Shown in pieces: positions 2,086 through 34,862 of a DNA stretch of 41,765 bases. The notes under the pieces were generated by a model that saw nothing but the letters and a program-made list of their open reading frames with translations, was not told where the DNA came from and made no database searches. Made by a program: the position numbers and the translations under genes. Position 1 is the stretch's first letter. Every line of letters begins with the position of its first letter. This DNA is from a virus. The stretch is taken from the UHGV virus genome UHGV-1359164, one strand, 5' to 3'.

Positions 2086-2131
2086 AATCATGCATCTGTT
2101 TTTTTTAGAAGTATACATGTAAATGATCATT

Positions 2132-2491: not shown

Positions 2492-2538
2492 TCAAGTAGT
2501 AACGTAGTAATAACCAATAACGAATAGGCGCTATTCTA

Positions 2539-3282
2539 TTATTCTGATGTTAAATAAATTATAGAAAATTCAACGTTTTGATTTCCTGAAGAGAACTGTT
2601 TATTAATTCCTATAGATGTACTTTCGATCATTATAAGATCAGTAACATTTTTCCCTAGAATGTGATACTCACCGATAGACCAAATAGGACGAAAACCTTC
2701 AGGAATATCCATTATTTTGTTGGTAGCAAAAGATGTCATTGCATCAAATTTTATCGTGCCTACAATTTTTACCGTTACAGTTGTCCCAATTTTTTTAATC
2801 TGTGTACCTTTATCAGTAAAGTATGACGAGTCAAATGTGGGATTGCCAATCACTGGCGTTTTTAAATTACTATTTAGCTGATCAAGTTTCTGCCCCATAG
2901 CATAGGCCAGTGCCGCAGAAACACCTTTAGTCGCATCATTGGTCTGTACGCTTACCAGATCGCTGATCTTAAGCAACTTAGTAGCAGCCTGATCTACTAC
3001 CCAGTTTATCAAATCCTGTGCAGAAACTGTACCGCCCACTTCTCCCAGCACTCCGCTGGTATCCTCTGCCTGCACTGATTCCAGGGCTGTAGGGTTAAAG
3101 CCTTTAGCCATCAGCTGATAATTAATGTGATCATCTGTAGGTGTGATGCCTTGTACAGTCTTCAAGGTAATATATGTACTGTTTTCATACATTACCATTG
3201 TAAGTTGTTCATATGCTGTTTCCGGATTATATTCTCCACCATTGGTAAGCATCCACTTACCAAGATCTGTTGTGCTTGCCAC
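2539..3282 (-). CDS. Tail fibre / receptor-binding protein (distal part)
   Basis: GTG start overlapping the upstream TAG ('GGAGGTGGCATAGTG': SD GGAGG, 7 nt, GTG); located after the BppU-like gene. Confidence 0.5.
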   Translation of the reverse strand: MASTTDLGKWMLTNGGEYNPETAYEQLTMVMYENSTYITLKTVQGITPTDDHINYQLMAKGFNPTALESVQAEDTSGVLGEVGGTVSAQDLINWVVDQAATKLLKISDLVSVQTNDATKGVSAALAYAMGQKLDQLNSNLKTPVIGNPTFDSSYFTDKGTQIKKIGTTVTVKIVGTIKFDAMTSFATNKIMDIPEGFRPIWSIGEYHILGKNVTDLIMIESTSIGINKQFSSGNQNVEFSIIYLTSE

Positions 3283-4054
3283 TATGCCACCTCCACTAAT
3301 ACATGGTTATTTTCAACTTTAACTGTTACTGTTTTTCCTTGTTTGCACATCAAATGCCCTGTTGATGCATCCAGATAAAACTCCGGTAAGATCAGATTTG
3401 CATAGGTCCCAGCCTTTTCAGCTTCTTCTTTCGCCTTTTCGCTATAATATTTGCTGTTATCAGTATCTTCCCCTGTTCTGGAACCAGTACCACCCACAGC
3501 ATAGCTTATAGATGATTTATTATATGCCTCTGCCTCTTGCGCTGCTGTCTGAGCATCAAGCATATACTGCCGTAAAGTCTTCTGCAATGTAGGCTCTAGC
3601 TTATCTGCTGTTATTGACCCGTCTACCACATTTGCAGATATAGTCGTTCCATCCAGGTTCATTGCAATAGTCGCTGTACTGGAAACGTTATAAACAAAAC
3701 GTTGGAAGCTGATCTTCTTTATGGTTCCGTCCTGCTGGACCAGTACGAGATTACCGTCTTCGTCCAGATCAAGCTTTGTTGGCATCATCTCAATAGGAAA
3801 ATCTACCGTTTCTACAGTGCCATCCTTATGTGTTACAGTTACAATCCAAGTGGATGTGTCAACTTCCCATCCAGTTATAAATTTGGCCGCATCCGATGCT
3901 TCCAGTTTGTCCTGGGATAGGCCAAGGATATATTGCGCACATTGCAGGATACCATTATCCATATGGCGCAGATTTGTCTTGCCAACTGGTGTGGATGTGT
4001 CCGGGTAGTTCACCCAGCCTATAATGCTATAAAACAGCTCACTCAGCTTCATTC
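3282..4054 (-). CDS. Baseplate/tail-fibre protein with BppU-like N-terminal domain
   Basis: 'MKLSELFYSIIGWVNYPDTSTPVGKTNLRHMDNGI' (the NL.HMD.GI motif of BppU-type N-termini); start taken at internal ATG with AAGGAAG RBS. Confidence 0.55.
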
Positions 4055-4230
4055 TTTGCTTCCTTTCCGGACTGCTGTGGTTTTTCCGGGATTTCTTTAA
4101 CGATTCCACTGTCAAGGATAGCCGCAGCCTGTGCCATAAACTTTATATTGTCAAATCCTTTTACAGCCACCATATTAAGTAGTGCTGTTAAAAGCTGGAT
4201 ATCCTCTTTTTTGTACTCTACCTTAGCCAT
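4039..4230 (-). CDS. Small hypothetical protein between Tal and BppU-like genes
   Basis: RBS 'GGAGGTTGATC' followed by ATG ('MAKVEYKK'). Confidence 0.35.
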   Translation of the reverse strand: MAKVEYKKEDIQLLTALLNMVAVKGFDNIKFMAQAAAILDSGIVKEIPEKPQQSGKEAKNEAE

Positions 4231-12508: not shown

Positions 12509-12778
12509 TTACTTATTTATGCTCTGCTTATATACCTGGTTCACTCCTGTGGCTGCCAGTCCATTGAACATTCCCACAGAAATCGCTGTAATGTAGTCCG
12601 ATGCCGGGAAATCTGGAATAATTCCCATTCCGACTGCTCCGAGAATTCCGCCAATAACTGCCATGATTACCGGAATCCATTCATCAGAGATTTTTTTTGA
12701 CGCTTTACAGCCCATTCCTATGATGTAGCAGATCATAACGATTGCTATACACGAGCCTAATGTTGAAATGTCCATCAT
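12509..12778 (-). CDS. Holin-like small membrane protein (two TM helices plus charged C-terminal tail)
   Basis: 'LGSCIAIVMICYIIGMGC' and 'WIPVIMAVIGGILGAVGMGII' helices then '...GVNQVYKQSINK'; inside an AT-rich insert in the neck module. Confidence 0.45.
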   Translation of the reverse strand: MMDISTLGSCIAIVMICYIIGMGCKASKKISDEWIPVIMAVIGGILGAVGMGIIPDFPASDYITAISVGMFNGLAATGVNQVYKQSINK

Positions 12779-13071
12779 TCAGATACCTCCTCATAAGTTT
12801 TTTCAAAAATATCTGGTTTGCACGGATATAATTCTCCGTTTACACCCTGGATAACATAATCGCCAATAGATACATGATGATTGCCTTCCAGAGTTTTGAT
12901 ATACAATTCTGGAGTATCAGATGGTTTCGCCCTTGGAATGATATAATACATTGTTCCTTCTTTAAAGGCTTTTACTGCCCAGTCCGGCACATAATACTTA
13001 CCGTCCCTATCTTTCAAATCGCCATCATACTGAAATGCTTCAATTACAACTGGTTTCTTTCTAAATTTCAT
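12775..13071 (-). CDS. Conserved phage protein, paralogue of the N-terminal half of 29952..30533
   Basis: 'KKPVVIEAFQYDGDLKD.DG.YVP.WAV.A...G.MYY....EL.I.TLEG.HHVSIGDYVIQGVNGELYPCKPDIFEKTYE' shared with 29952..30533; roughly 75-80% nucleotide identity by eye. Confidence 0.6.
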   Translation of the reverse strand: MKFRKKPVVIEAFQYDGDLKDRDGKYYVPDWAVKAFKEGTMYYIIPRAKPSDTPELYIKTLEGNHHVSIGDYVIQGVNGELYPCKPDIFEKTYEEVSE

Positions 13072-15802: not shown

Positions 15803-15878
15803 ATCATCCTCCTGGCCGTGTTTATTGACCTGCCGCCGCAGGTAATGGATTAAGCCCGATAGACCACGGGCGGGGTAA

Positions 15879-15950
15879 CTCCGGCAGCCGGATTCGAACC
15901 AGCGCTATGAGAGTCAAAGTCTCATGCCTTAACCGCTTGGCAATGCCGAA
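15879..15950 (-). tRNA. tRNA-Gln (anticodon TTG)
   Basis: Hand fold: acceptor TTCGGCA/TGCCGGA, anticodon stem TGAGA/TCTCA with loop CTTTGAC, T-arm GCTGG-TTCGAAT-CCGGC; no encoded CCA. Confidence 0.7.
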
Positions 15951-16022
15951 AGCTGATAGCCGGACTTGAACCGACAACATATTGATTACAAGTCAATTGT
16001 TCTTCCATTGAACTATACCAGC
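15951..16022 (-). tRNA. tRNA-Thr (anticodon TGT)
   Basis: Acceptor GCTGGTA/TATCAGC, anticodon loop CTTGTAA, T-loop TTCAAGT. Confidence 0.7.
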
Positions 16023-16026
16023 AAAA

Positions 16027-16100
16027 TGGACCGCCAGGGACTTGAACCCCGGACCACCCGGTTATGAGCCGGGCGCTCTGACCAGCTGAGCTAGCGGTCC
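16027..16100 (-). tRNA. tRNA with CAT anticodon (elongator Met or Ile-lysidine; G1-C72 pair argues against initiator)
   Basis: Acceptor GGACCGC/GCGGTCC, D-arm TAGCTCAGCTGGTCAGAGCG, anticodon loop CTCATAA, T-arm CCGGG-GTTCAAG-TCCCTG. Confidence 0.75.
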
Positions 16101-16102
16101 TA

Positions 16103-16133
16103 AAATGCCTGGCATGATTACATACCAGGCATT
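16103..16133. terminator. 9-bp-stem hairpin 'aatgcctgg...ccaggcatt' followed by TTTTA on the minus strand
   Basis: Perfect inverted repeat between 16428..16970 and the tRNA trio. Confidence 0.5.
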
Positions 16134-16427
16134 TACAAGGGGAAAAGAAAAACTCTGCTTATAGCAGCGGAATCCTCGCTGCGGTCGTAAGCCGCATTAA
16201 CAGCCTATCAGCTACGAGGTGAAAGGAGGAAATTCAAGGCCAGTCAAAGCACTTGAATTTTGATCTGGCAAGCGCACGCCGGAAATTTCATCCGCTTTTC
16301 AACCTCCAGGAATGGCCTGTTTATATTAAGGACGTGCGCGGGAGGTGTGTGATAAAACCATGAAAAGTAACCAATCCTCTTCACATCTACATTCTACCAT
16401 TTATCTATAAGTACCTTGTCCACACAT

Positions 16428-22824: not shown

Positions 22825-24453
22825 CTATGCACTATTCCCCCGTCTCTCCCACAGCGATTCCGTAGCGTAACGGGTCGCATCAATTAAATGATTGTCCCGG
22901 TCTGGATAGCCGCTTATGATATTGCCATCCTTATCCCGGTCGTATTCGTATTTCTTAAATTCTTTGCATGCTTCCGGTGTTCGGTTCGGGTCCATAACCA
23001 GTTTCTTTCCCTGTAGCCACTTCATGGAGTATTCAACGCTACACGGTCCTTTCTTTGCCGCTCTTGCTGGCAAACCATCGTCTCTGTAATCCGTCACAGA
23101 TTTAGGCTCTGCGCTGTCGCAAGTTATAACGTAGTCATCATATCCGCGCCGCTTTATCTCCGCAGATGTCCAACTGTTTTTCTTTTTATTTTCGCGAATT
23201 TCGTCAATAAAGAATATAGTTTCACGCGCTGAATCGTAATATATGCGCACAAACCCATACGGGTCTGGATACCATCCCCAGTCAACGCCCTGATAGATGC
23301 GGTCCATCTGGCTGATTTCTTCATCAGTTATGGTCCGCTCCTCGATAAACTCAAATACGTTGCCGCCGTTTCCGTTGGCTTCGCCCATGTACTCGTTGTC
23401 GTAGGCAGCAGGATTGACCTCTTTCAGATGCTCAGCATCATTGATGAACTGTTCACCCAACCATTCTGCCGGAACATCCTTGTATGTGCTTCGGACCACC
23501 TTTGCAGCAGAATCCTTGAACTCTGCTTCTGTGGTGTACTCATTCGCCCAGTTGTTTTTGCTCCTCGGTGGGTTGAATGATTTAAACCTGTAGGCCTTAT
23601 CGCCACCACGGATGGCCGACTGCTGTATATTTCTGACCTCTTCCGGTCCGGCGAACTGGTCCAACTCCTCAAACCACACGATACCGATGTAGCCAAACTC
23701 CGGCTTTATGGACTTAATCTTAAGCGGATCGTCAGCGCCGCGGAAGTATATCTTCTGCCCGGTCGGCTTGTAAGTTATTTCAAACGGAGAAGTCTTGAAC
23801 TTAAATTCGTCCTCCAGCCCCATCTTCGATATGGCCCACTTAATCTGAGCATAAACGGAATCCTTGATAGTGTTACCGACCTTACGTAGCACCAGAGCGT
23901 GCATATCTGAGTGGTTTTTCAAAAGCTCTATGATAATACACGAAATCCCGGAAGACTTCGTGCTACCGCGTCCGCCGGGCAAAACATATTCTGTGTGTAG
24001 TCCGCGCCGGATGTCACGCACCATAGGGTGGAACACATCGGCTATGATATCAAGGTCAAGATGGTACTCACCTGCTGCTCTGGCGGCTTCTGCTGCTTTC
24101 TGCTGTGCTTCTTTCTGCTCCTTGATGGTGATAGCTTTTTCCAGGTCAGACATGGCCTTAAGCTGTTCGGAAAACGCCGGGGTAAATCCGAAGGAATCCT
24201 TCACCTCGCCCCGCGCTATCATGGCCCGCCGCTTCTGGATATCCGCAAGAGACATAGTGTCGGTACCGTTGCGCCTGTCAAGCTCTGCCTGTTTGTTCGC
24301 TATATAGGCCGCAACATCAGCATTCTTCAACAGTCTGCATCCTTCCTGTTCTGGCTTCTTATATCCCGCTTTCCTCGCCGCATCAGTCGCATTCCCACCA
24401 TTTTCTATGAAGTTTTTCGCGAACGCTTCCCGCTTTGGCGTAAGCTCGGCCAT
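22825..24453 (-). CDS. Terminase: small-subunit (HTH) domain fused in frame to a PBSX-type large subunit (542 aa)
   Basis: N-terminus 'MAELTPKREAFAKNFIENGGNATDAARKAGY' is TerS-like; Ala/Gln/Lys linker; then 'LPGGRGSTKSSGIS' Walker A and nuclease C-domain. The single ORF contains no internal stop. Confidence 0.8.
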   Translation of the reverse strand: MAELTPKREAFAKNFIENGGNATDAARKAGYKKPEQEGCRLLKNADVAAYIANKQAELDRRNGTDTMSLADIQKRRAMIARGEVKDSFGFTPAFSEQLKAMSDLEKAITIKEQKEAQQKAAEAARAAGEYHLDLDIIADVFHPMVRDIRRGLHTEYVLPGGRGSTKSSGISCIIIELLKNHSDMHALVLRKVGNTIKDSVYAQIKWAISKMGLEDEFKFKTSPFEITYKPTGQKIYFRGADDPLKIKSIKPEFGYIGIVWFEELDQFAGPEEVRNIQQSAIRGGDKAYRFKSFNPPRSKNNWANEYTTEAEFKDSAAKVVRSTYKDVPAEWLGEQFINDAEHLKEVNPAAYDNEYMGEANGNGGNVFEFIEERTITDEEISQMDRIYQGVDWGWYPDPYGFVRIYYDSARETIFFIDEIRENKKKNSWTSAEIKRRGYDDYVITCDSAEPKSVTDYRDDGLPARAAKKGPCSVEYSMKWLQGKKLVMDPNRTPEACKEFKKYEYDRDKDGNIISGYPDRDNHLIDATRYATESLWERRGNSA

Positions 24454-24474
24454 CTACTCACCATCCTGTCATTA

Positions 24475-24729
24475 CTACCAGTCTACCAGTGCTTCCCACA
24501 TCTCCTTTAAGGTCATGACAACATCAACCTGTGATGCTGTCCGGATGATCTCATAGTCCTTTGTTTTCCACTTACCTTTCACATATTGCAGTGTAGGTGT
24601 ACTCACGCTGTACATGGTTATCATCCGGTTCTGATCCGCACTGTAAAACTGGCTTGTGCCTATCTTTGTTACAAACCGCTTTGTGAGCAACGCTCTTTGC
24701 AGCTTTCTTTGTATCTGGTTAAGGTTCAT
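24475..24729 (-). CDS. Hypothetical small protein, first gene of the late operon
   Basis: ORF between terminator hairpin and terminase. Confidence 0.4.
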   Translation of the reverse strand: MNLNQIQRKLQRALLTKRFVTKIGTSQFYSADQNRMITMYSVSTPTLQYVKGKWKTKDYEIIRTASQVDVVMTLKEMWEALVDW

Positions 24730-24763
24730 ACTATCACCCTATTTTCATTTTATTCCAGTGCTA

Positions 24764-24803
24764 AACAAGGCGTATCACCGTTTTTGCGATGATGCGCCTT
24801 GTT
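24764..24803. terminator. 14-bp-stem hairpin separating early and late operons
   Basis: 'aacaaggcgtatca...tgatgcgccttgtt'. Confidence 0.45.
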
Positions 24804-24829
24804 GATTACCGTCTTGTTTAAATAGAAAT

Positions 24830-25063
24830 TTATGCAAATCTCAACTGCCCATCTATATCTTCTTCCAAGCGGTCTGTCCGGCAATTCGGCAATCGCTTAG
24901 CAACACACAGCTCTTTCAGATTCGCCCTCACCAGTGCCGTAGGTATCGGCGGACAAACTGCATTCCCACAGCGTCGCACCTGTTCGGCCCGGGGATATGC
25001 CTTTCCTTCGCAGTCTCGGTCAATTATGTAGTCTGCCGGAAATCCTTGGCGGGTGTCCACCAC
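24830..25063 (-). pseudogene. C-terminal fragment (motifs IX-X) of a C5 cytosine DNA methyltransferase
   Basis: 'TRQGFPADY...RRCGNAVCPPIPTALV' matches 'QGFPDDF ... GNAV.VP' at the C-terminus of Dcm-type MTases. No motifs I-VIII upstream. The 25084..25398 ORF is in another frame. Confidence 0.55.
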
Positions 25064-25083
25064 TTATTTTCTTGTGTCATTGT

Positions 25084-25398
25084 CTAGCTCCCTTTATACT
25101 TCCAAAAGCCAAAAAGCTTAAGTCTGTGGTAAAATTCTGCTTTTACTTTCCGCCTATACCCATAAAAATCATCTGCCTTTGCCGGAATATCTCTCCCGCG
25201 CCGGATCAGCGTATAATATCCGTCTCCAGTCACCAAGCTATCATACGTTTGGATTTCAAGCCCTGGCGCTTTTGATATCGCACAGCCAAATAGTATGATT
25301 TTTATCTCAGGATTCGGACTCCTGCAATATAGGTCAAGTTGTGATTCGTCCTCTTTTGGCACGTTATAGTCAGATAACTTAGCCTCTCTTGTTCTCAT
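25084..25398 (-). CDS. Hypothetical protein (possibly frameshifted MTase remnant/TRD)
   Basis: ORF only. Confidence 0.25.
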   Translation of the reverse strand: MRTREAKLSDYNVPKEDESQLDLYCRSPNPEIKIILFGCAISKAPGLEIQTYDSLVTGDGYYTLIRRGRDIPAKADDFYGYRRKVKAEFYHRLKLFGFWKYKGS

Positions 25399-25719
25399 CT
25401 AATCTCCTTCTTCTTTTTTTGCTGTCAGATATATCGTAGACAAATTATAGCCACTCCGTTTGAGGCGTTTTACAATCTCGTCCCAGTCTTTTAACAAACT
25501 TCTCTTTGCTCTGTCTTTTACTGGTTTTTCTTCTTTTTTCTTGCTTACAAGCTTCGAGCATCCCCAGCAGATCCTATAGTAGCCACCTCTAGCTTTTTTT
25601 TGCCCGTTACACCAACCTGTCCCGTTGTCGTAGTAGCATGACATTCTTTTCCCCTTTCCGCAGCTATCCGGCGCATGGCTGCTATTACGTATTCCATGCC
25701 CGGGTTTGTTTTTTTCCAC
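25399..25719 (-). CDS. Cys-rich small protein (zinc-ribbon-like), GTG start; an alternative overlapping ATG frame also exists
   Basis: 'CGKGKRMSCYYDNGTGWCNGQKK...YRICWGC'. Confidence 0.3.
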   Translation of the reverse strand: MEKNKPGHGIRNSSHAPDSCGKGKRMSCYYDNGTGWCNGQKKARGGYYRICWGCSKLVSKKKEEKPVKDRAKRSLLKDWDEIVKRLKRSGYNLSTIYLTAKKEEGD

Positions 25720-25741
25720 ATGGCTATATCTCCGCTAAATT

Positions 25742-26158
25742 TCAGTTTTGCTTACCATTCATGCGCTCTGCCTTAATTTCAAACTTCAATTCGTCTTCTT
25801 TAATATCAAGAGCTTTTTTCATATTGCATCTACTGGTTCCCCCTACATATGGGACAAATAAACTTCTAATTATTTCGCTTGTGTAAAATTGGATACAAGG
25901 TGTTTCCCCGTCAATCTTCGTATCAACTTTCAGATAGTCCAAAATATTATTGACCTGCTGCACCACATCTTCAATGAGATTTAATGCGCCCTTATAGATA
26001 TCAACGTAGCCATTAATCCTGATAGAATGCTGTCCTTCATCAATAATCCAAGCACCACAATCTGGACATTTCCCGTCAATAGGTTGTAATGCTTCATACA
26101 CCGTTTTGATCTTTGCATTTTCCTTGACTTCGCAATATGGACAATGTAAATAACTCAT
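25742..26158 (-). CDS. Hypothetical protein with N-terminal CxxC...CxxC zinc ribbon
   Basis: 'HCPYCEV...GKCPDCGAW'; start 'MSYLHC' after TTAAGATTTGGAGGA. Confidence 0.5.
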   Translation of the reverse strand: MSYLHCPYCEVKENAKIKTVYEALQPIDGKCPDCGAWIIDEGQHSIRINGYVDIYKGALNLIEDVVQQVNNILDYLKVDTKIDGETPCIQFYTSEIIRSLFVPYVGGTSRCNMKKALDIKEDELKFEIKAERMNGKQN

Positions 26159-26193
26159 GCTTTCATCCTCCAAATCTTAACTTTCAGTTTAGC

Positions 26194-27129
26194 TCACTCA
26201 TACCCTTCAAAGCTCAGTTGTCCAGGTGTGTCCCTTTCTTCCATCCACCAGCTAAAAACGTCATTCCCGTCTTTCCACCTAGGTTTTATTCCTGTTCCAG
26301 CATTCCTCATCGCTTCCAGCATTTTGTCAAAAGCTCTGATATACGCTCGCTTGTATGTCGGGAACATGGAAAATTCAAAATACCTGTTTTTTCCTGCCAT
26401 CGGACAGCCTACGCAACCACATCTTGAAAAACCCATGTTATAAAGCGGATTGATATGAATTCCTTCGCCAGCAATGAAGCGTGCTATATCGTAGTCCGTC
26501 CACTCTATTATTGGATTGCAAACGGTTTTGGCTTTTAACTCGCATTTTTCGATGAATTTTCTTTTCTTTGAGTTATCATTCATCAGCATAATTTCCGAAA
26601 TACCTGGGATTGTCATTTGCTCAAATTCTTCAGTTTCCCCTTGATTTTCCGACATTTCCGAATCAGATATTTTTATCCTATCTTTTTTAGCTTTCCCGAA
26701 TACCTCATACTCTCCCCTGTCAGCCCTTGCGCTGCTTTCATCCCACCGCACGCCTGTTGCTATCATTCTGTTTTTACAAGTGCCTTCTTTCAGGTATGCA
26801 CAACAATATCTCGCCCGTCTGGTTGGCGGCATTTTCTTTTTTACAATCAACTGCCACATCGAAAGGGCCGGGTATTGGATTGTACATTTAATTCCCTGCA
26901 TCTCTAATTTTTTGAATACATTTCTAATATGATAAACTGTCTGTGGCGTATCTACGGTTGTATGACTGTGATGTACTTCGAACGGAACGCCGGACCTTTT
27001 AAAAAGTTCCAGAATAACATCTGAATCTTTTCCCCCGGAATATGTACATACAACCGGCGCGCGATAATGGCGCAGGCTCATTTCAGACGCCAGCTTGATC
27101 CTTTCGATTGCTTTTTGTTCTAAATCCAT
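26194..27129 (-). CDS. PAPS-reductase-family (PP-loop ATP pyrophosphatase) protein, phage type
   Basis: 'VVCTYSGGKDSDV' PP-loop; C-terminal 'CGCVGCP' cluster. Confidence 0.7.
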   Translation of the reverse strand: MDLEQKAIERIKLASEMSLRHYRAPVVCTYSGGKDSDVILELFKRSGVPFEVHHSHTTVDTPQTVYHIRNVFKKLEMQGIKCTIQYPALSMWQLIVKKKMPPTRRARYCCAYLKEGTCKNRMIATGVRWDESSARADRGEYEVFGKAKKDRIKISDSEMSENQGETEEFEQMTIPGISEIMLMNDNSKKRKFIEKCELKAKTVCNPIIEWTDYDIARFIAGEGIHINPLYNMGFSRCGCVGCPMAGKNRYFEFSMFPTYKRAYIRAFDKMLEAMRNAGTGIKPRWKDGNDVFSWWMEERDTPGQLSFEGYE

Positions 27130-27144
27130 CTTTTCTCCTAAATC

Positions 27145-27642
27145 TTAATTTACTTTTAGTTCTTCACACATATATTTGAGGTCATTGTAATATCTTTCTT
27201 CGTCACCAAGCAAATCAGCAATTATTTCCAAAAATACTTTTTCTGCATCTTCCCAACTATTGATATTGTCATCATCTAGCTCTTGAATACCTCTATCAAG
27301 AAATTGATACCCATAAACTGCTTTCATTTCATCATCACATATCACAAATAAAGTAGCAATTCTATCTGTGTCATATGCGTACAATACCTTCTGCGTAATC
27401 CATGTTTCTTTTTCAGGGGTTACTTCTATTAATTTCATTCTTCTTGTCTTTACCTGTCTAACAGTTTCAGGATTAACTTCGTGCATTATAATCAATCTTC
27501 CTATTTCTCCTTTGACTGTAACAGCATTAGATATTGGGTGGATATATGTTTTCCCCTTAGAATGAATTAGGTCTCCTTCTACCCAGACTTCATTGAACTC
27601 TCTTCCACTATTTTTCACAGTTAATGCTCTAAATTTAACCAT
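27145..27642 (-). CDS. YopX-family phage protein
   Basis: N-terminus 'MVKFRA...' typical of YopX proteins; size. Confidence 0.55.
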   Translation of the reverse strand: MVKFRALTVKNSGREFNEVWVEGDLIHSKGKTYIHPISNAVTVKGEIGRLIIMHEVNPETVRQVKTRRMKLIEVTPEKETWITQKVLYAYDTDRIATLFVICDDEMKAVYGYQFLDRGIQELDDDNINSWEDAEKVFLEIIADLLGDEERYYNDLKYMCEELKVN

Positions 27643-27711
27643 GCTACCTCCAACTCTTAATTTCCTCGTAATACCTCTTTTTTGCTTCGCTCAGGATTAC
27701 CATGTCCATAT

Positions 27712-27885
27712 TTAATCAATATCGCCAGAATAATCTTCATTCCACAAGGCTTCAAAGTTTTCAATCGTCCTTTTGACTGCATTCTCATAAGTCTCTGCTT
27801 CTTCATCAGACAAGCTTCGATTCGCAATCTCCGGCGGTTCAAGTCGAACTATTCCGTATTTTTCACGGATCATTGCTCTTGTCAT
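27712..27885 (-). CDS. Small acidic hypothetical protein
   Basis: Motif plus 'GGGAAGGTGG' RBS then ATG ('MTRAMIREKY'). Confidence 0.3.
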   Translation of the reverse strand: MTRAMIREKYGIVRLEPPEIANRSLSDEEAETYENAVKRTIENFEALWNEDYSGDID

Positions 27886-28173
27886 AAGCCACCACCTTCC
27901 CAACTCTTAACTTACCAATCAAATCTTGCCATGTTCATAAACTCAAGTGGCATGGAACCACCAAAGAGATCATTAGCACCGTCGATAATGTCTGAATCTA
28001 CTCCGTCCGCTTCCAGCTGATCGTCAAACATTGCATCATTGCAGATAGATCCATACGGTGTTCTCGAATGTTTCCTGCTATATTTCTTTCCGTTACGTAA
28101 TTCCAAGGGATTCCGTACAACTGCTTTCTGTAGCCTCGATTGTATATCTCATGTATTCATCCTCCATCAAATC

Positions 28174-28422
28174 TTAATACAATCCAATAATGCAATAGCC
28201 TTTCATCAACCCGTACTCTGTAGCATTTCGCATCACATATCGAACCAAAAAACCGGTTTCTCTTCCGGTATATGCGCTTCCGTCCCACTCTTGCAATACA
28301 AGAAAATCACCAACTTGAATATCGTCTTCATCTTTTCTCAGCTCAAAGGATTTATCTCCGCTGATCACCGCATCATAATATTTAGGCAAAATTTTCTTTC
28401 TCACCATTTTGTGCATCGTCAT
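28174..28422 (-). CDS. ASCH/PUA-like (DUF3850-type) small protein
   Basis: 'ILPKYYDAVISGDKSFELRKDE.DIQVGD.LVLQEW' pattern. Confidence 0.4.
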   Translation of the reverse strand: MTMHKMVRKKILPKYYDAVISGDKSFELRKDEDDIQVGDFLVLQEWDGSAYTGRETGFLVRYVMRNATEYGLMKGYCIIGLY

Positions 28423-28711
28423 TCATCTCCAAAATCTTAACTTTCAGTTCTTCTATGGCTTTTTTATATTTCTGTACTATCTTATTGAAAAACTCAGCCA
28501 TTGTTACAAGAGCTTTCTTCTTTGCTTCATTCATATCTTCCGTTTTCAAAGGTACGTTGCTCAAATTCAATTCATAGCATGATAACAGCCATTCATTGCC
28601 ATAATCTATATGTTTATGAACCCTAAACTTAATTCCATTAGCCTCATTTTCTAATACACGTATTTCTCTTTTTACGTCGTTTCGACTATACGTAGTAATA
28701 TCTTTATACAT
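28382..28711 (-). CDS. Hypothetical protein
   Basis: Motif plus GGAGGGAAAG then ATG ('MYKDITTY'). Confidence 0.4.
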   Translation of the reverse strand: MYKDITTYSRNDVKREIRVLENEANGIKFRVHKHIDYGNEWLLSCYELNLSNVPLKTEDMNEAKKKALVTMAEFFNKIVQKYKKAIEELKVKILEMNDDAQNGEKENFA

Positions 28712-28770
28712 CTTTCCCTCCACTAAATCTTAATATACAAATAACTCAATCAATATCTCCAGAATCGTCA

Positions 28771-29004
28771 TCATTTCAATTTGAGATTTTTCCATAGCTG
28801 GTAACATTTCTTACAAGCCAAACCTGGATTTTTTTCTATTTCTTCAGTATCAATATCAGTTGTGAAAAAATCCTGATCTTGCCAATACTTTTCGCACAAA
28901 GACGTATTTTTAAAAAAACAGTGATATTTTGCTTTAGGATGAATCCAGTCAACGTTTGTAAGATTGCTTTGCTTTACTGGAAGCATCCATTTGTATCTTC
29001 TCAT
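28771..29004 (-). CDS. Hypothetical Cys-containing small protein
   Basis: ORF preceded by degenerate motif. Confidence 0.35.
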   Translation of the reverse strand: MRRYKWMLPVKQSNLTNVDWIHPKAKYHCFFKNTSLCEKYWQDQDFFTTDIDTEEIEKNPGLACKKCYQLWKNLKLK

Positions 29005-29027
29005 ATGCTCAGTCCTTCAAATTCTTA

Positions 29028-29252
29028 TTACCATTTAATTGCTTTTACTAACACTGTGTAATATGGTTCGACAATGTTTACAAAAACCAATGTTGCATGT
29101 TCCAATGGCTCATATAATACACACTCAACTATTACTTCTATTTCTTTCCCTTCAGATGCTTTCATAGAAATCCTGTCATCTTCCCGTGGTGTGAAATCAA
29201 GGACTCCTAAATTGCATTTTGTTGTTTTATCAATCACAAAAATATTATTCAT
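29028..29252 (-). CDS. Hypothetical small protein
   Basis: 'TTAGAATTGGAGGTAAGAGAA' then ATG ('MNNIFVIDK'). Confidence 0.35.
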   Translation of the reverse strand: MNNIFVIDKTTKCNLGVLDFTPREDDRISMKASEGKEIEVIVECVLYEPLEHATLVFVNIVEPYYTVLVKAIKW

Positions 29253-29458
29253 TTCTCTTACCTCCAATTCTAATGAAACACGAATTTTGCTTATCTCGTG
29301 ATTTTCTTCTGGATTTCAAGAGATAGTCGCAAGATAAAACGCTTGCGAGTCCGCTATCAGTCAGCCCCTCGCCTCTGTAAATCCGACTTTCACGGTTGGC
29401 AGCACCGGCCTTATAGACTGATTTCATCCGGCTTCCAGTTCTATCATTTTAAGGTATT

Positions 29459-29674
29459 TTAATTATCATCTTTTAACACTAAATTAATTGCATCTCTCAA
29501 ATCTTTAAAACATTCTTTACACAATCGAATACGATGACGTGATATGCCAAGTTCTTCACTCACAAAGTAATCCTTATTTCCACAATTTTCACAGCAATCT
29601 ACTTTATTTATCTGGATCCTATGTATACTGTTTTGTGGCTCTTCTTTTTTTAGCTTCTTAGCTATCCAATTCAT
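29459..29674 (-). CDS. Small zinc-finger protein
   Basis: 'CCENCGN...CKEC'. Confidence 0.4.
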   Translation of the reverse strand: MNWIAKKLKKEEPQNSIHRIQINKVDCCENCGNKDYFVSEELGISRHRIRLCKECFKDLRDAINLVLKDDN

Positions 29675-29683
29675 AATCTTAAT

Positions 29684-29929
29684 TTACACATTTACACCGT
29701 GATCTTTCAAAGCCTGTGTCCAAGTTTCTTTTATCTCCTTCGGGCAATGCGCCATAGCATCTGACCATATAGGCCAACGCCCGTGCTGATCATAGAATTT
29801 ATACTGATATGCAAGGCTATCCCGATTGTGCGGCTGCTCCGGGTCATGCTTTACTGCACATTCCGGACAAGTTCCATCCTGTGTTTTACCAAGCAGTGCC
29901 ATTCCATATATTTTTTTCAAATATCCCAT
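29684..29929 (-). CDS. Hypothetical small protein (Cys/His-containing)
   Basis: RBS AGGAGA; motif present in inverted orientation. Confidence 0.4.
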   Translation of the reverse strand: MGYLKKIYGMALLGKTQDGTCPECAVKHDPEQPHNRDSLAYQYKFYDQHGRWPIWSDAMAHCPKEIKETWTQALKDHGVNV

Positions 29930-29951
29930 ATCTCTTCTTTCTCCTAAGATT

Positions 29952-30533
29952 TTAAAACTCAGTTACTCCATCCGGGCCTTCCAGATCTGCAGTATTGTCT
30001 TCGTACTCGCACCTGGAGATGAGGGTTATATTTTCCACCGGGACCTTGCAGGTTTTCGCAAATCCAGCCTTCCGCTCTTCTGCCATCACCGGAAGATTCA
30101 CGCTTCCTAAATTTTCTGTGTCAAAATCAAACGCCACCATCGCATAACCTGTGCTTTCCGGTCCACCGTATAAGTCAGCCCCTACGATCTCGTAATACAA
30201 ACTTAATGTTACTTGTACTGTATTCATCTTCGCTCTCCCAATCTTAATACTCTCATAAGTCTTTTCAAAGATATCCGGTTTGCATGGATACAGTTCACCG
30301 TTGACACCCTGAATCACATAATCTCCTATGGAGACGTGGTGAATACCTTCCAGAGTTTCGATAAAAAGCTCACACGGCGGAGCGCCGCAGCTTTCAGAAC
30401 TATAATACATGACGCCCTTTTCGTAAGCTTCAACTGCCCAGTTCGGTACATACCAGTTACCATCACAGTCTTTTAAATCTCCATCGTACTGAAACGCTTC
30501 AATAACCACGGGTTTCTTTCTATATTTAGCCAT
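29952..30533 (-). CDS. Two-part protein: N-terminal 97 aa paralogous to 12775..13071, read through into a C-terminal ~95-aa unit that has its own motif, RBS and ATG (at ~30226)
   Basis: Paralogy by eye; internal 'TTAAGATTGGGAGAGCGAAG' then ATG ('MNTVQVTL') inside the ORF. Confidence 0.55.
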   Translation of the reverse strand: MAKYRKKPVVIEAFQYDGDLKDCDGNWYVPNWAVEAYEKGVMYYSSESCGAPPCELFIETLEGIHHVSIGDYVIQGVNGELYPCKPDIFEKTYESIKIGRAKMNTVQVTLSLYYEIVGADLYGGPESTGYAMVAFDFDTENLGSVNLPVMAEERKAGFAKTCKVPVENITLISRCEYEDNTADLEGPDGVTEF

Positions 30534-30682
30534 AATATTTCCTCCAAATCTTAATAAATATATCTAGGCTTTGGGTGGCTCTTATTTTGGCCACGTTCTT
30601 TTACAATCTCAATTGCATCATTTATTCCCTTGATGTAGGCACTTGTATCGGTTATAGCTTTTATAAAACCAAGGTTTTCTTT

Positions 30683-31249
30683 TTAACGAAGCATCAGCTG
30701 TGGCATGGTTTTCCATTTACTCCCATTTTTAGAAAGCCAGCCTTCATCTTTTGCCATATCCATATCAACAGTCATACCTTCAACTCGTCTGCCGTTCTTC
30801 ATTGTCCATGCCATGCAAGAAAATGGCTTTCCGTCCTTGCCCTTCGTTTCCTCAAACTGCAATTCCATGTCAAATTTTCCAGAATTGTTAATAGCTGCAA
30901 TCAAGAATTTAGAACTCCATGACGGTCTTCCCTGGATAACATAAAGATTCTGCATAACCATAAGCGGACTAACCTTAAGCCGATTGGCCTGCTCTATTGC
31001 AATTAAACAGTTTGCATCATTTCTCTGAAATGTAGCCGGAACAATTGTAGAACTCGAAAGCGCTTTAGCCATTTGCATAGCCATAATGAAGTTATCTGAC
31101 GTTCCAAAAATTCCAAGGCTGTAGTCTGTCACCTTGTTTCTTGCCTGAACTGCCTCTTTCTTCTCCTCTTGGTGCTTCCTTGTGGTCCCTCCTTTTGGGG
31201 CGGGTTTTTGGAGGACTATGATAGGTTCCCGCCCCAGGTTAATGGTCAA
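30683..31249 (-). CDS. RecT/Red-beta-family single-strand annealing protein, apparently C-terminally truncated (188 aa)
   Basis: '...GKFDMELQFEETKGKDGKP...GSKWKTMPQLMLR*' stops exactly where family members continue ('MLRYRAA.FF.R.Y'); the downstream frames do not restore the motif. Confidence 0.5.
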   Translation of the reverse strand: MTINLGREPIIVLQKPAPKGGTTRKHQEEKKEAVQARNKVTDYSLGIFGTSDNFIMAMQMAKALSSSTIVPATFQRNDANCLIAIEQANRLKVSPLMVMQNLYVIQGRPSWSSKFLIAAINNSGKFDMELQFEETKGKDGKPFSCMAWTMKNGRRVEGMTVDMDMAKDEGWLSKNGSKWKTMPQLMLR

Positions 31250-31290
31250 AGAGTATATCGTGACATATAAACCGACCGCAAGTTTTTTAT

Positions 31291-31506
31291 CTATGTATCA
31301 TCCCCGTTTGGGATCGGGGTGGATACCTTTTTTATAGCTTTATGCGTCCGTCTGCTTGGATCTGGGCATAAAGCCGTGCCGTCATATGCTGGTCTCCTGA
31401 AGCTTTCGCTCATAGGAGATGGGTATTTTTCTAAATCGGCCAGCTCGGCCATTTTCTTTTTTACACTTTTTTCATGGTATGTAACTTTATCCTTGTGACT
31501 TATCAT
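31291..31506 (-). CDS. Hypothetical small protein
   Basis: ORF only. Confidence 0.25.
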   Translation of the reverse strand: MISHKDKVTYHEKSVKKKMAELADLEKYPSPMSESFRRPAYDGTALCPDPSRRTHKAIKKVSTPIPNGDDT

Positions 31507-32086
31507 TATCCATCCACTCTTTTACTTTATCCTGCATTATGCTGTTATAGTCTGTATCGCGCTGATCGTAGTTAAAAAATGCATTCTGTTTTTTAGGCTG
31601 GCTTTTCCCAGCCTTTGCCGATTTATCTTGCTCTCTCGCAAACCAGCTGTTCAAAAAACGTGGTGCACCTTTCCGTGTTTTTCGGCGTGTAAGGTTCGAA
31701 TCACACCACCCGATGATCTTGTTAAGCTCTTGCCTACAATCAACACCCGGGTACAGCTTTTGCATCTTATCAAGCGCAGTTTCTGTTACTTCGTATAATG
31801 TTCCATCATTAAGCTTAAATGCTCCAACTACAGGCCCGTTTTCTTCTTCCGGAATATCTTCCGCCGGTCTCCCACCTTTTGCTCCATTGGCCTTTCGCTT
31901 GATATTGGCATCGATTTGAGGCTTAGCCATCTCGTATATGGACATATACAGCTCTCCAGTGTCTTCCGGTTCTTCTCCTTTCAACCCATAATCAATAATT
32001 GCCCATAGAGCTTTAAGCTGTTGGTTTTCTGGTAGCCGCTTGATAGCTTTCGAAAAACTGCTGTAAAAAATCAAGCTATCTCTCAT
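31487..32086 (-). CDS. Hypothetical replication-module protein
   Basis: 199 aa ORF in operon context. Confidence 0.4.
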   Translation of the reverse strand: MRDSLIFYSSFSKAIKRLPENQQLKALWAIIDYGLKGEEPEDTGELYMSIYEMAKPQIDANIKRKANGAKGGRPAEDIPEEENGPVVGAFKLNDGTLYEVTETALDKMQKLYPGVDCRQELNKIIGWCDSNLTRRKTRKGAPRFLNSWFAREQDKSAKAGKSQPKKQNAFFNYDQRDTDYNSIMQDKVKEWMDNDKSQG

Positions 32087-32411
32087 TTCGCCCAGCCTCC
32101 CACTCCCGGTAAATTTTTATCCAGTCGGAAAGCCGCATGGTCACAAGCCATTCGCAGCGATCCCGCCTGTGGAATACCGCCGGGAGGTGTCTGGGAAGCG
32201 CATCATGCACTGCCTGTGCTACCGCATCCAGAAGATTGAGTTTCTCAACCCTCTTGCACTCAACGTGGATACCTGGAAGTCCAATCACATCAGCATTACC
32301 TGCTGCGCCGCAGTATTGCTGCCCTCTTCTGGCATCGTATCCGTACTCCCGGAACACTCCGGCGAGCTCCCTTTCTCCGCGTTTTCCCTTTTCTCTCTGT
32401 GTCTTACCCAT
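32076..32411 (-). CDS. PD-(D/E)XK Holliday-junction-resolvase-like nuclease (Hjc/RecU-type)
   Basis: 'GKRGERELAGV...NADVIGLPGIHVECK' gives E...D...E.K; start after GGAGGTTG. Confidence 0.5.
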   Translation of the reverse strand: MGKTQREKGKRGERELAGVFREYGYDARRGQQYCGAAGNADVIGLPGIHVECKRVEKLNLLDAVAQAVHDALPRHLPAVFHRRDRCEWLVTMRLSDWIKIYREWEAGRNER

Positions 32412-32778
32412 CACAACAACCTCCAAACAATGATAGCTGCTCATATTTCTCTTTATCAGGTGGCTTCATGTTCCTCGCGAAACGCTTAGCACCTCTTTCT
32501 GCCGTCTTTATGCTTCTGCATCTTCTATCCTGTGTCTCAATCCATCGGACCGCTTCACGCCGTCCCTGTGCATCTGTACGTGGGATATAATAGCCCAGTC
32601 CGTTGTCTGCTGTGAGAATTGGTCGATCATACCGCAGTATCTCAATCGCTTTCCGCACCGCCCTGTCTGGCAAGCCAGTTACCCGGCATAATTCCCTACG
32701 GCTTGTAGCGTTTTCCTTACCTACGCCAATCGCATTATATACAGTTGCTGTTGCAGCAGATGTTAATCTAAAATCCAT
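32404..32778 (-). CDS. Winged-helix DNA-binding protein (replication/regulatory)
   Basis: 'SRRELCRVTGLPDRAVRKAIEILRYDRPILTADNGLGYYIP'; start after AAAGGAAAG. Confidence 0.45.
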   Translation of the reverse strand: MDFRLTSAATATVYNAIGVGKENATSRRELCRVTGLPDRAVRKAIEILRYDRPILTADNGLGYYIPRTDAQGRREAVRWIETQDRRCRSIKTAERGAKRFARNMKPPDKEKYEQLSLFGGCCDG

Positions 32779-32804
32779 AGCTTTCCTTTCTTCTTGCCTG
32801 CATA

Positions 32805-33107
32805 TCATAAATATGATTTGCCAAACTCCTGCCGGAAGTCATCACGGCTCCCGTAATGCTCCTCGTAGTATGTCTGGGCCATCTGTTTCAATTTCCGGTC
32901 AATCTGTAAATTTTCATCAGACCGGACAAACCCCGCCCCATTTGGGTGTAGGTCTGGCCGCAGCGGTATCACAAACCCTCTTTCTTCGGATTTCTTCTTA
33001 AACCCCTGTCGGCTCTCAAAGATATGGTGCCGCTCTACCGCAGATGAGCCGGTAAAGTAGCAGTGGTCCATATCGTCAGTAAAAACGCTCCAAAGTCTCT
33101 TAGCCAT
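32805..33107 (-). CDS. Small HNH-like nuclease candidate
   Basis: 'DHCYFTGSSAVERHHIF'. Confidence 0.35.
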   Translation of the reverse strand: MAKRLWSVFTDDMDHCYFTGSSAVERHHIFESRQGFKKKSEERGFVIPLRPDLHPNGAGFVRSDENLQIDRKLKQMAQTYYEEHYGSRDDFRQEFGKSYL

Positions 33108-33672
33108 CTTCCCTCCGGTTCTGATCGTAAAGCTGCTTCATCCGTTCCAGTTCTTCCGGTGTGGCTGTCTCAATGCCAAGTACCTTACACTCGTAAATCA
33201 GGCCATCCAGAAGGTGCGACATCTCAGCGGTGTCGTAGCGGCTGGAACCCATCAGAACAACGTATGTACGGTAGTTGATTCCGTCATTCCCTTCGACCAC
33301 CTGTGATGTTGGGCGGAGGTGAAACACCGTTCTTTCCATGACATCGTTTTCGGCTTCTTCCGTGTCCGGGATTCGTACATAGCACCTGGAACCGTCCACA
33401 AGTTCCACTTGACCGTATTCCCTCAACATGATGTTATGCGCCCGTGGTTTTGATATGCGGAGGTCTTCGGCGAGTTTTGAAAGTAGTACCCAATAGTATG
33501 CGTTGCTGTCAAGGCTTCTTTTTTCTCTCCAGTGCGCCGCCTTAATCCGCAGCGGCTTATCCGCAATGCCGTCAATCTGGCCGGATACATCGTCCTCAAT
33601 CTCAAATGTCAGGCGGAACTTACCGGATACCCAGTCTTTGGCGGCATTTATCAGTTTTCCCTTGCACTCCAT
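33100..33672 (-). CDS. Hypothetical protein downstream of ERF (SSB position, but no SSB signature seen)
   Basis: Synteny only. Confidence 0.4.
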   Translation of the reverse strand: MECKGKLINAAKDWVSGKFRLTFEIEDDVSGQIDGIADKPLRIKAAHWREKRSLDSNAYYWVLLSKLAEDLRISKPRAHNIMLREYGQVELVDGSRCYVRIPDTEEAENDVMERTVFHLRPTSQVVEGNDGINYRTYVVLMGSSRYDTAEMSHLLDGLIYECKVLGIETATPEELERMKQLYDQNRREDG

Positions 33673-33675
33673 AGG

Positions 33676-34362
33676 CTACCTCGCAGGTGTGTTCCAGGGC
33701 AGTCCATCTCCGGTATCATCCGGTGGCACTGTATTCTGCTCTGCCTTGTTTTGTGCTGCCGATGGCGTTTTTTCAAATGCTTCCATTGCTGTCTCAAACT
33801 GCTGCACCGTAAGCTCTTCTAGTGACCGTGCGCCGATTGCCTTAAGTATCGCACTCTTTGATTTGCCGATTCTTTTGCACTCATCTGCAAACATTTTTCG
33901 CTGTTCCGCTGTTGCATATACAGGCTTACTCGGCGGCATAGTCTCAGCGTCCGGATCTTTCATTTCTTCTGTTGGAATGCAAAATGTTTGGAAGCAGGCG
34001 TATTTAAAAGCCACGCTCATAGCCTTATTTGTGGCTTTATCTCCACTGTCCATGCCTTCGCCAATCACGATTGCAGAAACTGAAGATCCATCTTCTGCAT
34101 AAAAGGTATATTTCACAGTGCAGATGGAGTAGATCAGGTTTCCACCCTTTGCTGTTTGACGTTCTTCACGTCTCTGTTCCAATATCTCCGGCACAACAAA
34201 TAATCTGTGTTTTATCAGCGCTGGATTGATCGCATTCATGACAGCATCAATACCGCGATACATGAAGCGTTGCTGTTCATTTCGGCTATTCTTTCCAACC
34301 GCTCCGATTTCAGCCATGACGGCATTTATCGTCTCATAAATATTTTTCTTCTTCTCCTCCAT
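33676..34362 (-). CDS. ERF-family single-strand annealing protein
   Basis: 'FMYRGIDAVMNAINPALIKH...DSGDKATNKAMSVAFKYACFQTFCIPTEE' matches the ERF core. Confidence 0.7.
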   Translation of the reverse strand: MEEKKKNIYETINAVMAEIGAVGKNSRNEQQRFMYRGIDAVMNAINPALIKHRLFVVPEILEQRREERQTAKGGNLIYSICTVKYTFYAEDGSSVSAIVIGEGMDSGDKATNKAMSVAFKYACFQTFCIPTEEMKDPDAETMPPSKPVYATAEQRKMFADECKRIGKSKSAILKAIGARSLEELTVQQFETAMEAFEKTPSAAQNKAEQNTVPPDDTGDGLPWNTPAR

Positions 34363-34370
34363 ACTCTCGC

Positions 34371-34862
34371 CTACTTAATCTGGAGATTCTGCCTTGCAAC
34401 CAGCCGTGCCCCTTTGACTTCTGTGCCACTTCTCAAGAGCTTCTTAAGTGCTGTCTTATCCACTACCGGATCAGCAATCTTGATACAGGATTGCGGCAAG
34501 GCGTTGACATCACCAACAAATTCAACAGCTTCTGACTTTCTCCATGATGCTGATACGCGCTCTGTCTGGAACTTCTGCCCATTCAGCACCCCACTGACAT
34601 ACTTTTTAAGGCTTTCGGCTTTCGCTTCCGCTCTTGCTTGTCGATCTGCAAAGGCCATTTTTTCTTTTTTCAGTGCCTCTGCATCCGACTGCAAATTTTT
34701 AATCCATAAAAGGATATTTTCTATTTTCTCATTAAGATCGCACTGTAAGCTATCAATGGCCGCATACGCTTCTGTATCAACAATCTCTCCTGTCTCTGGA
34801 TCCAAAGCATTTTCAAATGCATTCATAATGTCCGCGTTGATCTGGTATAAATTCACGTTCAC
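34371..34862 (-). CDS. Siphovirus Gp157-family protein
   Basis: Position upstream of ERF; coiled-coil; N-terminus 'MNVNLYQINADIMNAFE'. Confidence 0.55.
   Translation of the reverse strand: MNVNLYQINADIMNAFENALDPETGEIVDTEAYAAIDSLQCDLNEKIENILLWIKNLQSDAEALKKEKMAFADRQARAEAKAESLKKYVSGVLNGQKFQTERVSASWRKSEAVEFVGDVNALPQSCIKIADPVVDKTALKKLLRSGTEVKGARLVARQNLQIK

Follow-up and report, generated by a model that had tools for sequence, protein, structure and literature searches.

What purpose is served by a short sequence that recurs, in one orientation, just ahead of one small phage gene after another? The virus genome UHGV-1359164 raises this question. The stretch analysed here (the window, 41,765 nucleotides) is nearly all of a human-gut metagenomic phage contig of 41.9 kb. 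A first-pass annotation, made from the letters alone, had described a 9-nt motif joined to the ribosome-binding sites (RBSs) of at least 11 consecutive early genes and had proposed either a module-specific post-transcriptional signal or a recombination hotspot for the shuffling of gene cassettes. The choice bears on an old dispute about phage mosaicism, in which exchange guided by conserved linkers is set against random breaks filtered by selection, and clear, defined linkers are few (the stem-loops of T4-type phages and some lambdoid junctions). Here, we find that the element is a real, clade-specific junction adaptor, and we think it probable that it combines a stop codon with an RBS and provides the microhomology at which cassettes are shuffled.

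The exact 9-mer, TTAAGATTT, occurs six times in the window against 0.84 expected from shuffles (none of 100 shuffles reached six), and the longer pattern TTAAGAKT-N0-6-GGAG occurs eight times against 0.08. All copies lie on the minus (coding) strand between 26172 and 30554, that is, within 4.4 kb. In a per-gene table, 13 of the 14 gene starts from 30533 to 26158 bear a recognisable copy: ten have the 9-mer with at most one mismatch (30533, 30227, which is internal, 29674, 28711, 28422, 28152, 27885, 27642, 27129 and 26158), three have a degenerate form (29929, 29252 and 29004) and the doubtful open reading frame (ORF) start at 29427 has none. The proposed run of at least 11 consecutive genes therefore stands only when degenerate copies are counted. 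No comparable match was found at the 11 replication and early genes between 37663 and 31249 or at the approximately 35 genes downstream of the array, and about 50 other gene starts of the phage, replication genes included, have zero copies (39 of these starts form the non-motif set of the RBS-accessibility comparison below). Because the replication and early genes lack it, the motif is not a general mark of early genes and instead marks the accessory-gene region. The motif was rightly called module-specific, with copies only in the variable region, and rightly said to be absent from late and lysogeny genes, none of whose starts carries it. An independent repeat finder recovered the motif as the direct-repeat families D1, D2, D4, D6 and D8. 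The inverted copy that had also been reported (29944-29952, plus strand, one mismatch) is not supported: chance alone should give the window approximately 20 hits with one mismatch, no inverted-repeat pair from the same finder includes the motif, the relatives have zero copies in that orientation, and the site is better read as a direct copy that has decayed.

In extended form the consensus reads wAAA-TTAAGATT-T-GGAGG, about 18 nt (wAAATTAAGATTTGGAGG). In a set of 74 uniquely flanked junctions, taken from the window and from related contigs, only positions -4 to +13 carry information and the sequence on either side is random; the invariance of positions 0-7 is circular, these having been set by the search pattern. 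In 29 of 63 unique junctions the upstream gene has its stop codon in the TAA of the motif, and in 12 further of the 63 unique upstream ORFs the stop lies at most 6 nt upstream of the motif. From the first T to the start codon there are 16-26 nt (mode 19), and the gap between the 9-mer and the Shine-Dalgarno (SD) sequence varies from 0 to 4 nt. The proteins encoded behind the motif fall into 43 unrelated families (median length 74 amino acids). The individual copies in the window, in the order of transcription, are as follows.

30541..30558, minus strand: copy 1, ttaTTAAGATTTGGAGG, 7 nt before the ATG at 30533 of a 193-amino-acid ORF; the first junction of the variable region
30233..30247, minus strand: TTAAGATTGGGAGAG, a copy within the 193-amino-acid ORF, with the 9-mer at 30239-30247 and an internal ATG at 30227
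29935..29952, minus strand: degenerate copy TAAAATCTTAGGAG, before gene 29929..29684; the site earlier taken for an inverted copy
29672..29686, minus strand: TAAaTTAAGATTATG, abutting the start codon of gene 29674..29459, with no SD
29262..29274, minus strand: degenerate copy TTAGAATTGGAGG, before gene 29252..29028
29013..29027, minus strand: degenerate copy TAAGAATTTGAAGGA, before gene 29004..28771
28715..28736, minus strand: copy ataTTAAGATTTAGTGGAGGG, before gene 28711..28382
28427..28449, minus strand: extended copy AACTGAAAGTTAAGATTTTGGAG, within the 3'-terminal part of gene 28711..28382, with the DUF3850 gene (28422..28174) next
28161..28177, minus strand: copy TTAAGATTTGATGGAGG, whose TAA is the stop of the DUF3850 gene; precedes a 19-codon mini-ORF, 28152..28093
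27889..27910, minus strand: variant TTAAGAGTTGGGAAGGTGG, before gene 27885..27712
27647..27663, minus strand: variant aaaTTAAGAGTTGGAGG, before gene 27642..27145; its TAA ends ORF 27842..27657
27134..27152, minus strand: copy taaaTTAAGATTTAGGAG, whose TAA terminates gene 27642..27145; followed by the PAPS-reductase-like gene 27129..26194
26167..26189, minus strand: extended copy AACTGAAAGTTAAGATTTGGAGG, at the right edge of the PAPS-reductase cassette; followed by gene 26158..25742
25731..25755, minus strand: decayed relative AAAACTGAAATTTAGCGGAG, before gene 25721..25399; repeat family D14

Comparison with related contigs gives strong evidence that cassettes are exchanged at the motif. High-scoring segment pairs of 96-100% identity terminate at motif copies. 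The PAPS-reductase cassette, which runs from motif copy to motif copy (window 26160-27153), is 96-100% identical in eight contigs and has at least five different upstream neighbours; the switch falls at ‘aaaTTAAGATTT’, and the copy taaaTTAAGATTTAGGAG forms the left edge of the cassette. The segment 29675-30248 is 99% identical in contigs L121 and L122, and in L121 its counterpart abuts the PAPS cassette via one common copy, so the window has 2.5 kb extra between two copies. The copy TAAaTTAAGATTATG is the crossover point in L121/L122 and in L077.

Four contigs (L322-L325) are 99-100% identical to the window, with an identical PAPS reductase, and have cassettes that are re-ordered, deleted or given new neighbours. 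L322 is missing gene 26158..25742; the copy AACTGAAAGTTAAGATTTGGAGG is the crossover point of this deletion, the AAAACTGAAATTTAGCGGAG site is its second partner and the crossover lies in the common AAACTGAAA. In L323 and L324 the copy in the 3' end of gene 28711..28382 (AACTGAAAGTTAAGATTTTGGAG) is joined to the PAPS copy, with 1.3 kb lost and that gene truncated, and a relative of the 3' part of gene 27642..27145 is placed between other cassettes. The L323 counterpart of gene 29004..28771 (99% identical) has a perfect TTAAGATTTGAAGGA where the window has a degenerate copy. L325 shows 100% identity over 990 nt, with yet another neighbour. The crossovers in L322-L325 fall within AAACTGAAA, TTAAGATTT and GTAAATTAAGATT, and three-way alignments of L322, L323 and L121 with the window place crossovers inside the shared 9-13 nt of the motif. 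The direct repeats at the copies measure 9-18 nt, or sometimes 23-28 nt with a AAACTGAAAG extension. Genuine junctions with both flanks conserved were not found below approximately 90% identity, hence neighbour pairs are short-lived and turnover is fast; the two lower-identity ‘junctions’ that had come up as candidates for a test of purifying selection proved to be chance intragenic matches in late genes.

One exchange has left a fused gene. In the 193-amino-acid ORF (30533..29952), two cassettes have been joined in frame at a motif copy: residues 1-96 share 72% identity with a 98-amino-acid paralogue at 13071..12775, matches to phage families cover only residues 1-98, and the second half exists in L121 and L122 as a stand-alone 91-amino-acid gene, preceded by a motif copy with stops. 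The ORF-internal copy noted in the first-pass annotation is genuine and is the seam of a two-gene fusion. The idea of a recombination hotspot for cassette shuffling is supported too, by identical cassettes with different neighbours, by crossovers inside the motif and by the enrichment of breakpoints given below.

Several observations concern the same genes. The two paralogues of about 98 amino acids, of the phrog_419 type, lie on the minus strand at 12775-13071, among the head-tail genes, and at 30248-30533, in the first variable-region cassette, where the stop codon has been lost and the gene is fused to the next. L322 also carries a tyrosine integrase (345 amino acids) and a DNA methylase (478 amino acids) at its positions 1834-4317, inserted just upstream of the 84-amino-acid gene and TerL; this insertion lies outside the motif array, with both sides 96-99.9% identical to the window. 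Behind the perfect motif copy at the DUF3850 stop, the 19 codons of 28152..28093 are followed by an out-of-frame 64-amino-acid ORF with a TTG start (28106..27912), and 27912-28152 looks like a frameshifted gene or an assembly error; gene callers differ for this region, giving 39 or 64 amino acids in L320 and L321. The sole interval of the array without a motif copy, 29245-29458 (minus), is about 190 nt that are more G+C-rich than their surroundings and hold only a doubtful 60-amino-acid ORF. A structured RNA in the gene-poor 29255-29470 was rejected (z-score -0.28 against shuffles, no Rfam match). Finally, two unrelated genes share 87% identity across the SD, the spacer and the first codons (26150-26172 and 28144-28166, minus; GGAGGATGAAnnCATGAGnTAT), and this similarity reaching 3' of the motif may be the trace of an older exchange.

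How widely is the element distributed? An exact 14-mer scan of viral contigs returned mostly chance singletons together with a set of contigs of G+C 0.44-0.49 that have two to five copies each, and loci were gathered via the PAPS-reductase-like protein and via TerL. The motif is limited to close relatives of G+C 0.44-0.48, with a PAPS reductase at least 89% or a TerL at least 80% identical to that of the window; motif-bearing outliers by TerL are L394 (76%) and L406 (65%). In the relatives it is invariably on the TerL strand, in the interval that separates the replication module from the terminase gene and 1-7 kb before TerL. Loci of the motif-free sister clade (G+C about 0.40) have approximately one copy in total and no other start-associated 8-mer, and Blautia phage Montmirail does not use the motif as an RBS. 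Together with its absence from the approximately 50 other starts of the phage, this speaks against a generic RBS context, which the first-pass annotation had named as the alternative, as far as phages are concerned. In bacterial genomes the exact 14-mer gives single chance hits across all phyla, with two copies each at only two unrelated loci among the matches listed. Neither the 13-mer nor the 14-mer occurs in the searchable literature, in which matches to the 9-mer come from unrelated organisms. As judged from sequence comparison among phages, the motif is specific to one human-gut phage clade. The DUF6291 gene, present in 8 of 10 motif-bearing and 0 of 46 motif-free TerL relatives, follows this clade, as do the neighbouring replication genes.

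A few distant PAPS-reductase orthologues have motif look-alikes upstream. Exact TTAAGATTT stands upstream of an orthologue that is 53% identical (G+C 0.39) in L135, L136, L137, L152 and L153, as a single copy about 25 nt upstream of position 10001 with no adjoining SD, and may be a relic or a transferred junction.

The array occupies a defined place in the genome. The minus strand codes everything from approximately 37.6 kb down to 0.4 kb, beginning with early and replication/recombination genes, continuing through the run of small genes and ending with TerL, portal, head, tail and endolysin, the last being of the M15 type with cell-wall-binding repeats. The features needed here are the following.

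38.5-39.3 kb, plus strand: lysogeny module (helix-turn-helix repressor, ImmA-like peptidase)
34826..34371, minus strand: Sipho_Gp157, a recombination gene
34362..33676, minus strand: Erf single-strand annealing protein
33672..33100, minus strand: NinB/Orf-like mediator
32426..32076, minus strand: RusA/PDDEXK-like resolvase
25399..31486, minus strand: variable (hyperplastic) region of small, mostly orphan genes, G+C 0.35-0.42
24453..22825, minus strand: TerL

The recombination gene block thus spans 32076..34826 (minus). The variable region is bounded by a conserved DUF6291 gene (32086..31487) on one side and the 104-amino-acid, 84-amino-acid and TerL genes (25398..22825) on the other. Among TerL relatives, 10 with and 46 without the motif, most small window genes lack a homologue, whereas in the same comparison the flanking DUF6291, 104-amino-acid, 84-amino-acid and TerL genes are conserved, which identifies 31.5-25.4 kb as a hyperplastic region. 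The closest cultured relative is phage Montmirail, with about 69% identity across terminase and portal, hence the host is probably a member of the Lachnospiraceae.

Directly upstream of the first motif copy lies a 188-amino-acid protein (30683-31249, minus) that matches the C-terminal part of phrog_561, annotated as a RecT-like annealing protein (positions 291-443 of 633, E = 2e-55); it has no Pfam match. The phage may therefore carry a second recombination-related protein besides Erf. Two structured RNAs were also seen. A full-length FuFi-1 RNA (Rfam RF02986; 37392-37551, plus; 145 bits, E = 3e-32) is placed between the lysogeny and lytic blocks on the strand opposite to the lytic genes. A RAGATH-21 RNA (RF03097; 16271-16340, minus; 79 bits) lies just upstream of three tRNA genes (Met-CAT, Thr-TGT and Gln-TTG; 15878-16100, minus), and this group (15878-16340) sits in the middle of the late gene block.

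What could such an element do? In the reading that we consider probable, it is a stop-plus-RBS adaptor acting as microhomology for cassette shuffling. Its TAA would end the upstream gene and, about 5 nt further on, its SD would serve the next gene; a gene lying between two copies would be properly terminated and re-initiated, and the adaptor might give translational coupling. A crossover anywhere in the adaptor would keep the upstream stop and the downstream RBS and, since stop and SD survive exchange at a fixed spacing, recombinants would usually be viable. Because the same sequence stands at every junction and is common to related phages, it would act as microhomology: copies would anneal within one genome or between co-resident phages, and recombination between them would delete, insert, re-order, swap or occasionally fuse cassettes. 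The phage’s own Erf/Orf/resolvase module would catalyse the exchange and, as we infer from its gene content, this Erf recombination module probably drives the shuffling. Where homologies are short or diverged, Erf-type and other Rad52-like proteins are far more effective than RecA at recombining them (PMC3945230), and homologies of 5-13 bp have been reported sufficient for RecET (PMC2327257).

Breakpoint statistics give this reading quantitative support and also show its limits. In 27 non-redundant motif-bearing loci, with other starts within 2 kb as the comparison, 43 of 83 motif starts coincide with homology ends at ≥90% identity versus 53 of 200 other starts (odds ratio 3.0, p = 6e-5), and 33 of 83 versus 25 of 200 do so at ≥95% identity (odds ratio 4.6, p = 7e-7), p-values that overstate independence, the loci being related and treated as independent. 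Further points also weigh against the adaptor as the agent of shuffling. An identity of 9-18 nt is little for homologous exchange to proceed efficiently. In any phage, breakpoints are favoured at gene boundaries, since recombinants that are not viable are lost, and part of the enrichment could reflect selection and not mechanism. Sister-clade phages are mosaic too without the motif, hence the motif is not required for shuffling. The 9-mer is intact even though its distance to the SD varies by 0-4 nt, and at 29674 it is kept without any SD, which suggests that it has a value of its own beyond the adaptor model. This last point would be explained if the 9-mer were a dedicated site for a clade-specific factor, either one that catalyses or targets exchange, in an integron-like system built on an RBS, or one that switches the translation of an accessory regulon, a proposal that we regard as quite unlikely.

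In another account the motif would be a passive marker: illegitimate recombination would occur anywhere, boundary recombinants would survive, and the motif would descend from one ancestral RBS copied along with genes, without causing anything. Non-motif starts do coincide with breakpoints as well (the 53 of 200 above), and the motif-free sister-clade phages have equally variable regions. Against this stand the three-way alignments, in which crossovers fall within the shared nucleotides of the motif and not merely near a boundary, and the 3- to 4.6-fold enrichment (odds ratio) of breakpoints over other starts of the same region. The exchange in L323 used a copy inside coding sequence and truncated a gene, and another produced an in-frame fusion; neither is predicted by selection for clean boundaries alone. 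The motif also stands before 43 unrelated families, so it was not inherited through gene duplication. We therefore hold the passive account to be very improbable. A regulatory account of the kind discussed for mycobacteriophages, in which a factor of phage or host binds the 9-mer in mRNA or DNA and co-ordinately switches the translation of the accessory genes, with recombination as a by-product, seems to us unlikely, and it is the integrity of the 9-mer where the SD is displaced or absent that keeps it alive. The motif has a single strict orientation and a fixed place just 5' of the SD in one non-structural module only; it is kept as SD spacing varies, including at the SD-less start 29674 and the same junction in L077; the exact 9-mer persists before the PAPS-reductase orthologues of a distant lineage (L135/L152); and the mycobacteriophage sequences have the same anatomy, their function still unknown (PMC3203893, PMC12699233). 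However, no candidate factor emerges: none of the variable-region proteins of the window, the DUF3850/ASCH-like one included, is conserved among motif-bearing relatives, and a conserved trans-acting protein from that region was rejected; DUF6291 and the replication genes that track the clade give no functional hint. Decayed copies are, moreover, tolerated at three genes.

The motif was also considered as a target or modulator of translation by RNA pairing. Complementarity to FuFi-1 or RAGATH-21 is no greater than in shuffled controls, with duplex energies within the shuffled range, and an antisense role was rejected. A generic Firmicutes 16S 3' tail, which may not be that of the host, pairs with GGAGG only (-10.4 kcal/mol versus -29.1 for a full complement), so extended anti-SD pairing was set aside. 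Predicted RBS accessibility does not differ significantly either (unpaired probability 0.56 versus 0.53, p = 0.29); initiation regions of motif genes fold more weakly (p = 0.015), which tracks the lower G+C of the region. A promoter or terminator role was rejected as well, given that predicted sites are not above shuffled expectation and not associated with the motif, which abuts the SD and leaves no room for a leader. There remains processing by an endoribonuclease, which would divide the polycistronic transcript into mRNAs of one gene each, or else inactivate them, much as RNase III sites separate the T7 early genes and RegB cuts in the SDs of T4 early genes. The motif does stand at nearly all gene boundaries of a long, apparently promoter- and terminator-free stretch, and it is AU-rich and single-stranded in character. 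Since it comes with no hairpin or other structure and no nuclease gene is conserved alongside it, we give this idea hardly any credence.

The stop-plus-RBS adaptor makes this gut-phage clade an unusually clean case for the dispute on mosaicism: a consensus of 9-18 nt stands at about a dozen consecutive junctions, doubles as stop and RBS, and its exchanges can be seen in comparisons of genomes with 99-100% identity. If the reading is true, the clade offers a directly testable system for cassette turnover, a practical way to mark out accessory-gene cassettes in metagenomes of gut phages and a natural plug-and-play site at which genes could be added to such phages.

How does the adaptor compare with known systems? 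The promoter-early stem-loops (PeSLs) of T4-type phages (Arbiol et al. 2010, PMC2839356; Comeau et al. 2014, PMC4122927) are, like the adaptor, repeated expression-signal cassettes that lie between small orphan genes of hyperplastic regions and contain both the stop of the preceding gene and the SD of the following one. In both, insertions, deletions and replacements between close relatives are bounded by copies and are explained by recombination between them. However, PeSLs are much longer and contain a sigma-70 promoter and a stem-loop terminator, making each gene its own transcription unit, whereas the adaptor is about 18 nt of stop codon, spacer and SD in which no promoter or hairpin was found; its sequence is another one, and it belongs to a temperate siphovirus-like phage of a Gram-positive host. 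The anatomy matches that of the start-associated sequences (SAS) described by Pope et al. 2011 (PMC3203893) in Cluster K mycobacteriophages, which in 2025 still had no known function (PMC12699233). These, too, are short asymmetric repeats that include the SD core; a genome has about 10-19 of them, all oriented alike and placed a few nucleotides before starts, sometimes taking in the upstream stop, and they are confined to the non-structural half of the genome, clade-specific and rare elsewhere. The sequences are unrelated (GGGATAGGAGCCC, the 13-bp SAS consensus, versus TTAAGATTTGGAGG); a match allowing two deviations fails, and only the GGAG core is common. About half of SAS are accompanied by ESAS, which are 17-bp imperfect inverted repeats, whereas none stands beside any adaptor copy and the flanks of the adaptor are without information. 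SAS have been discussed as translational or regulatory signals and not as exchange points, whereas the strongest evidence for the adaptor is recombination, and the host phyla differ; the adaptor may nonetheless illuminate the still unexplained SAS.

Lambdoid phages reportedly have linker or boundary sequences of a comparable kind, said to go back to the modular theory of Susskind and Botstein and to have been described by Clark et al. 2001 for HK620. Such sequences are also mentioned in PMC2327257. They share with the adaptor a short junction sequence that is conserved among related phages while the flanking genes are unrelated (for the adaptor, 74 junctions and 43 families), and recombinant junctions with the crossover inside the shared sequence (L322, L323 and L121). 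Phage-encoded Rad52-like annealing proteins are the likely catalysts at lambdoid linkers (PMC3945230). These linkers are few, scattered and heterogeneous, whereas the adaptor is one consensus at approximately 10-13 consecutive junctions, doubling as stop plus RBS. Integron cassettes with their attC sites likewise form arrays in one orientation, of promoter-less single genes, with a repeated site for gain, loss and re-ordering. An attC site is an imperfect palindrome of 57-141 nt recombined by the adjacent IntI integrase; the adaptor, by contrast, is 9-18 nt, asymmetric and without a palindrome, and no integrase lies in or beside the array of the window. Hence the adaptor behaves like the T4-type PeSLs and the lambdoid linkers, has the anatomy of the Cluster K SAS, and belongs to none of these or to integrons.

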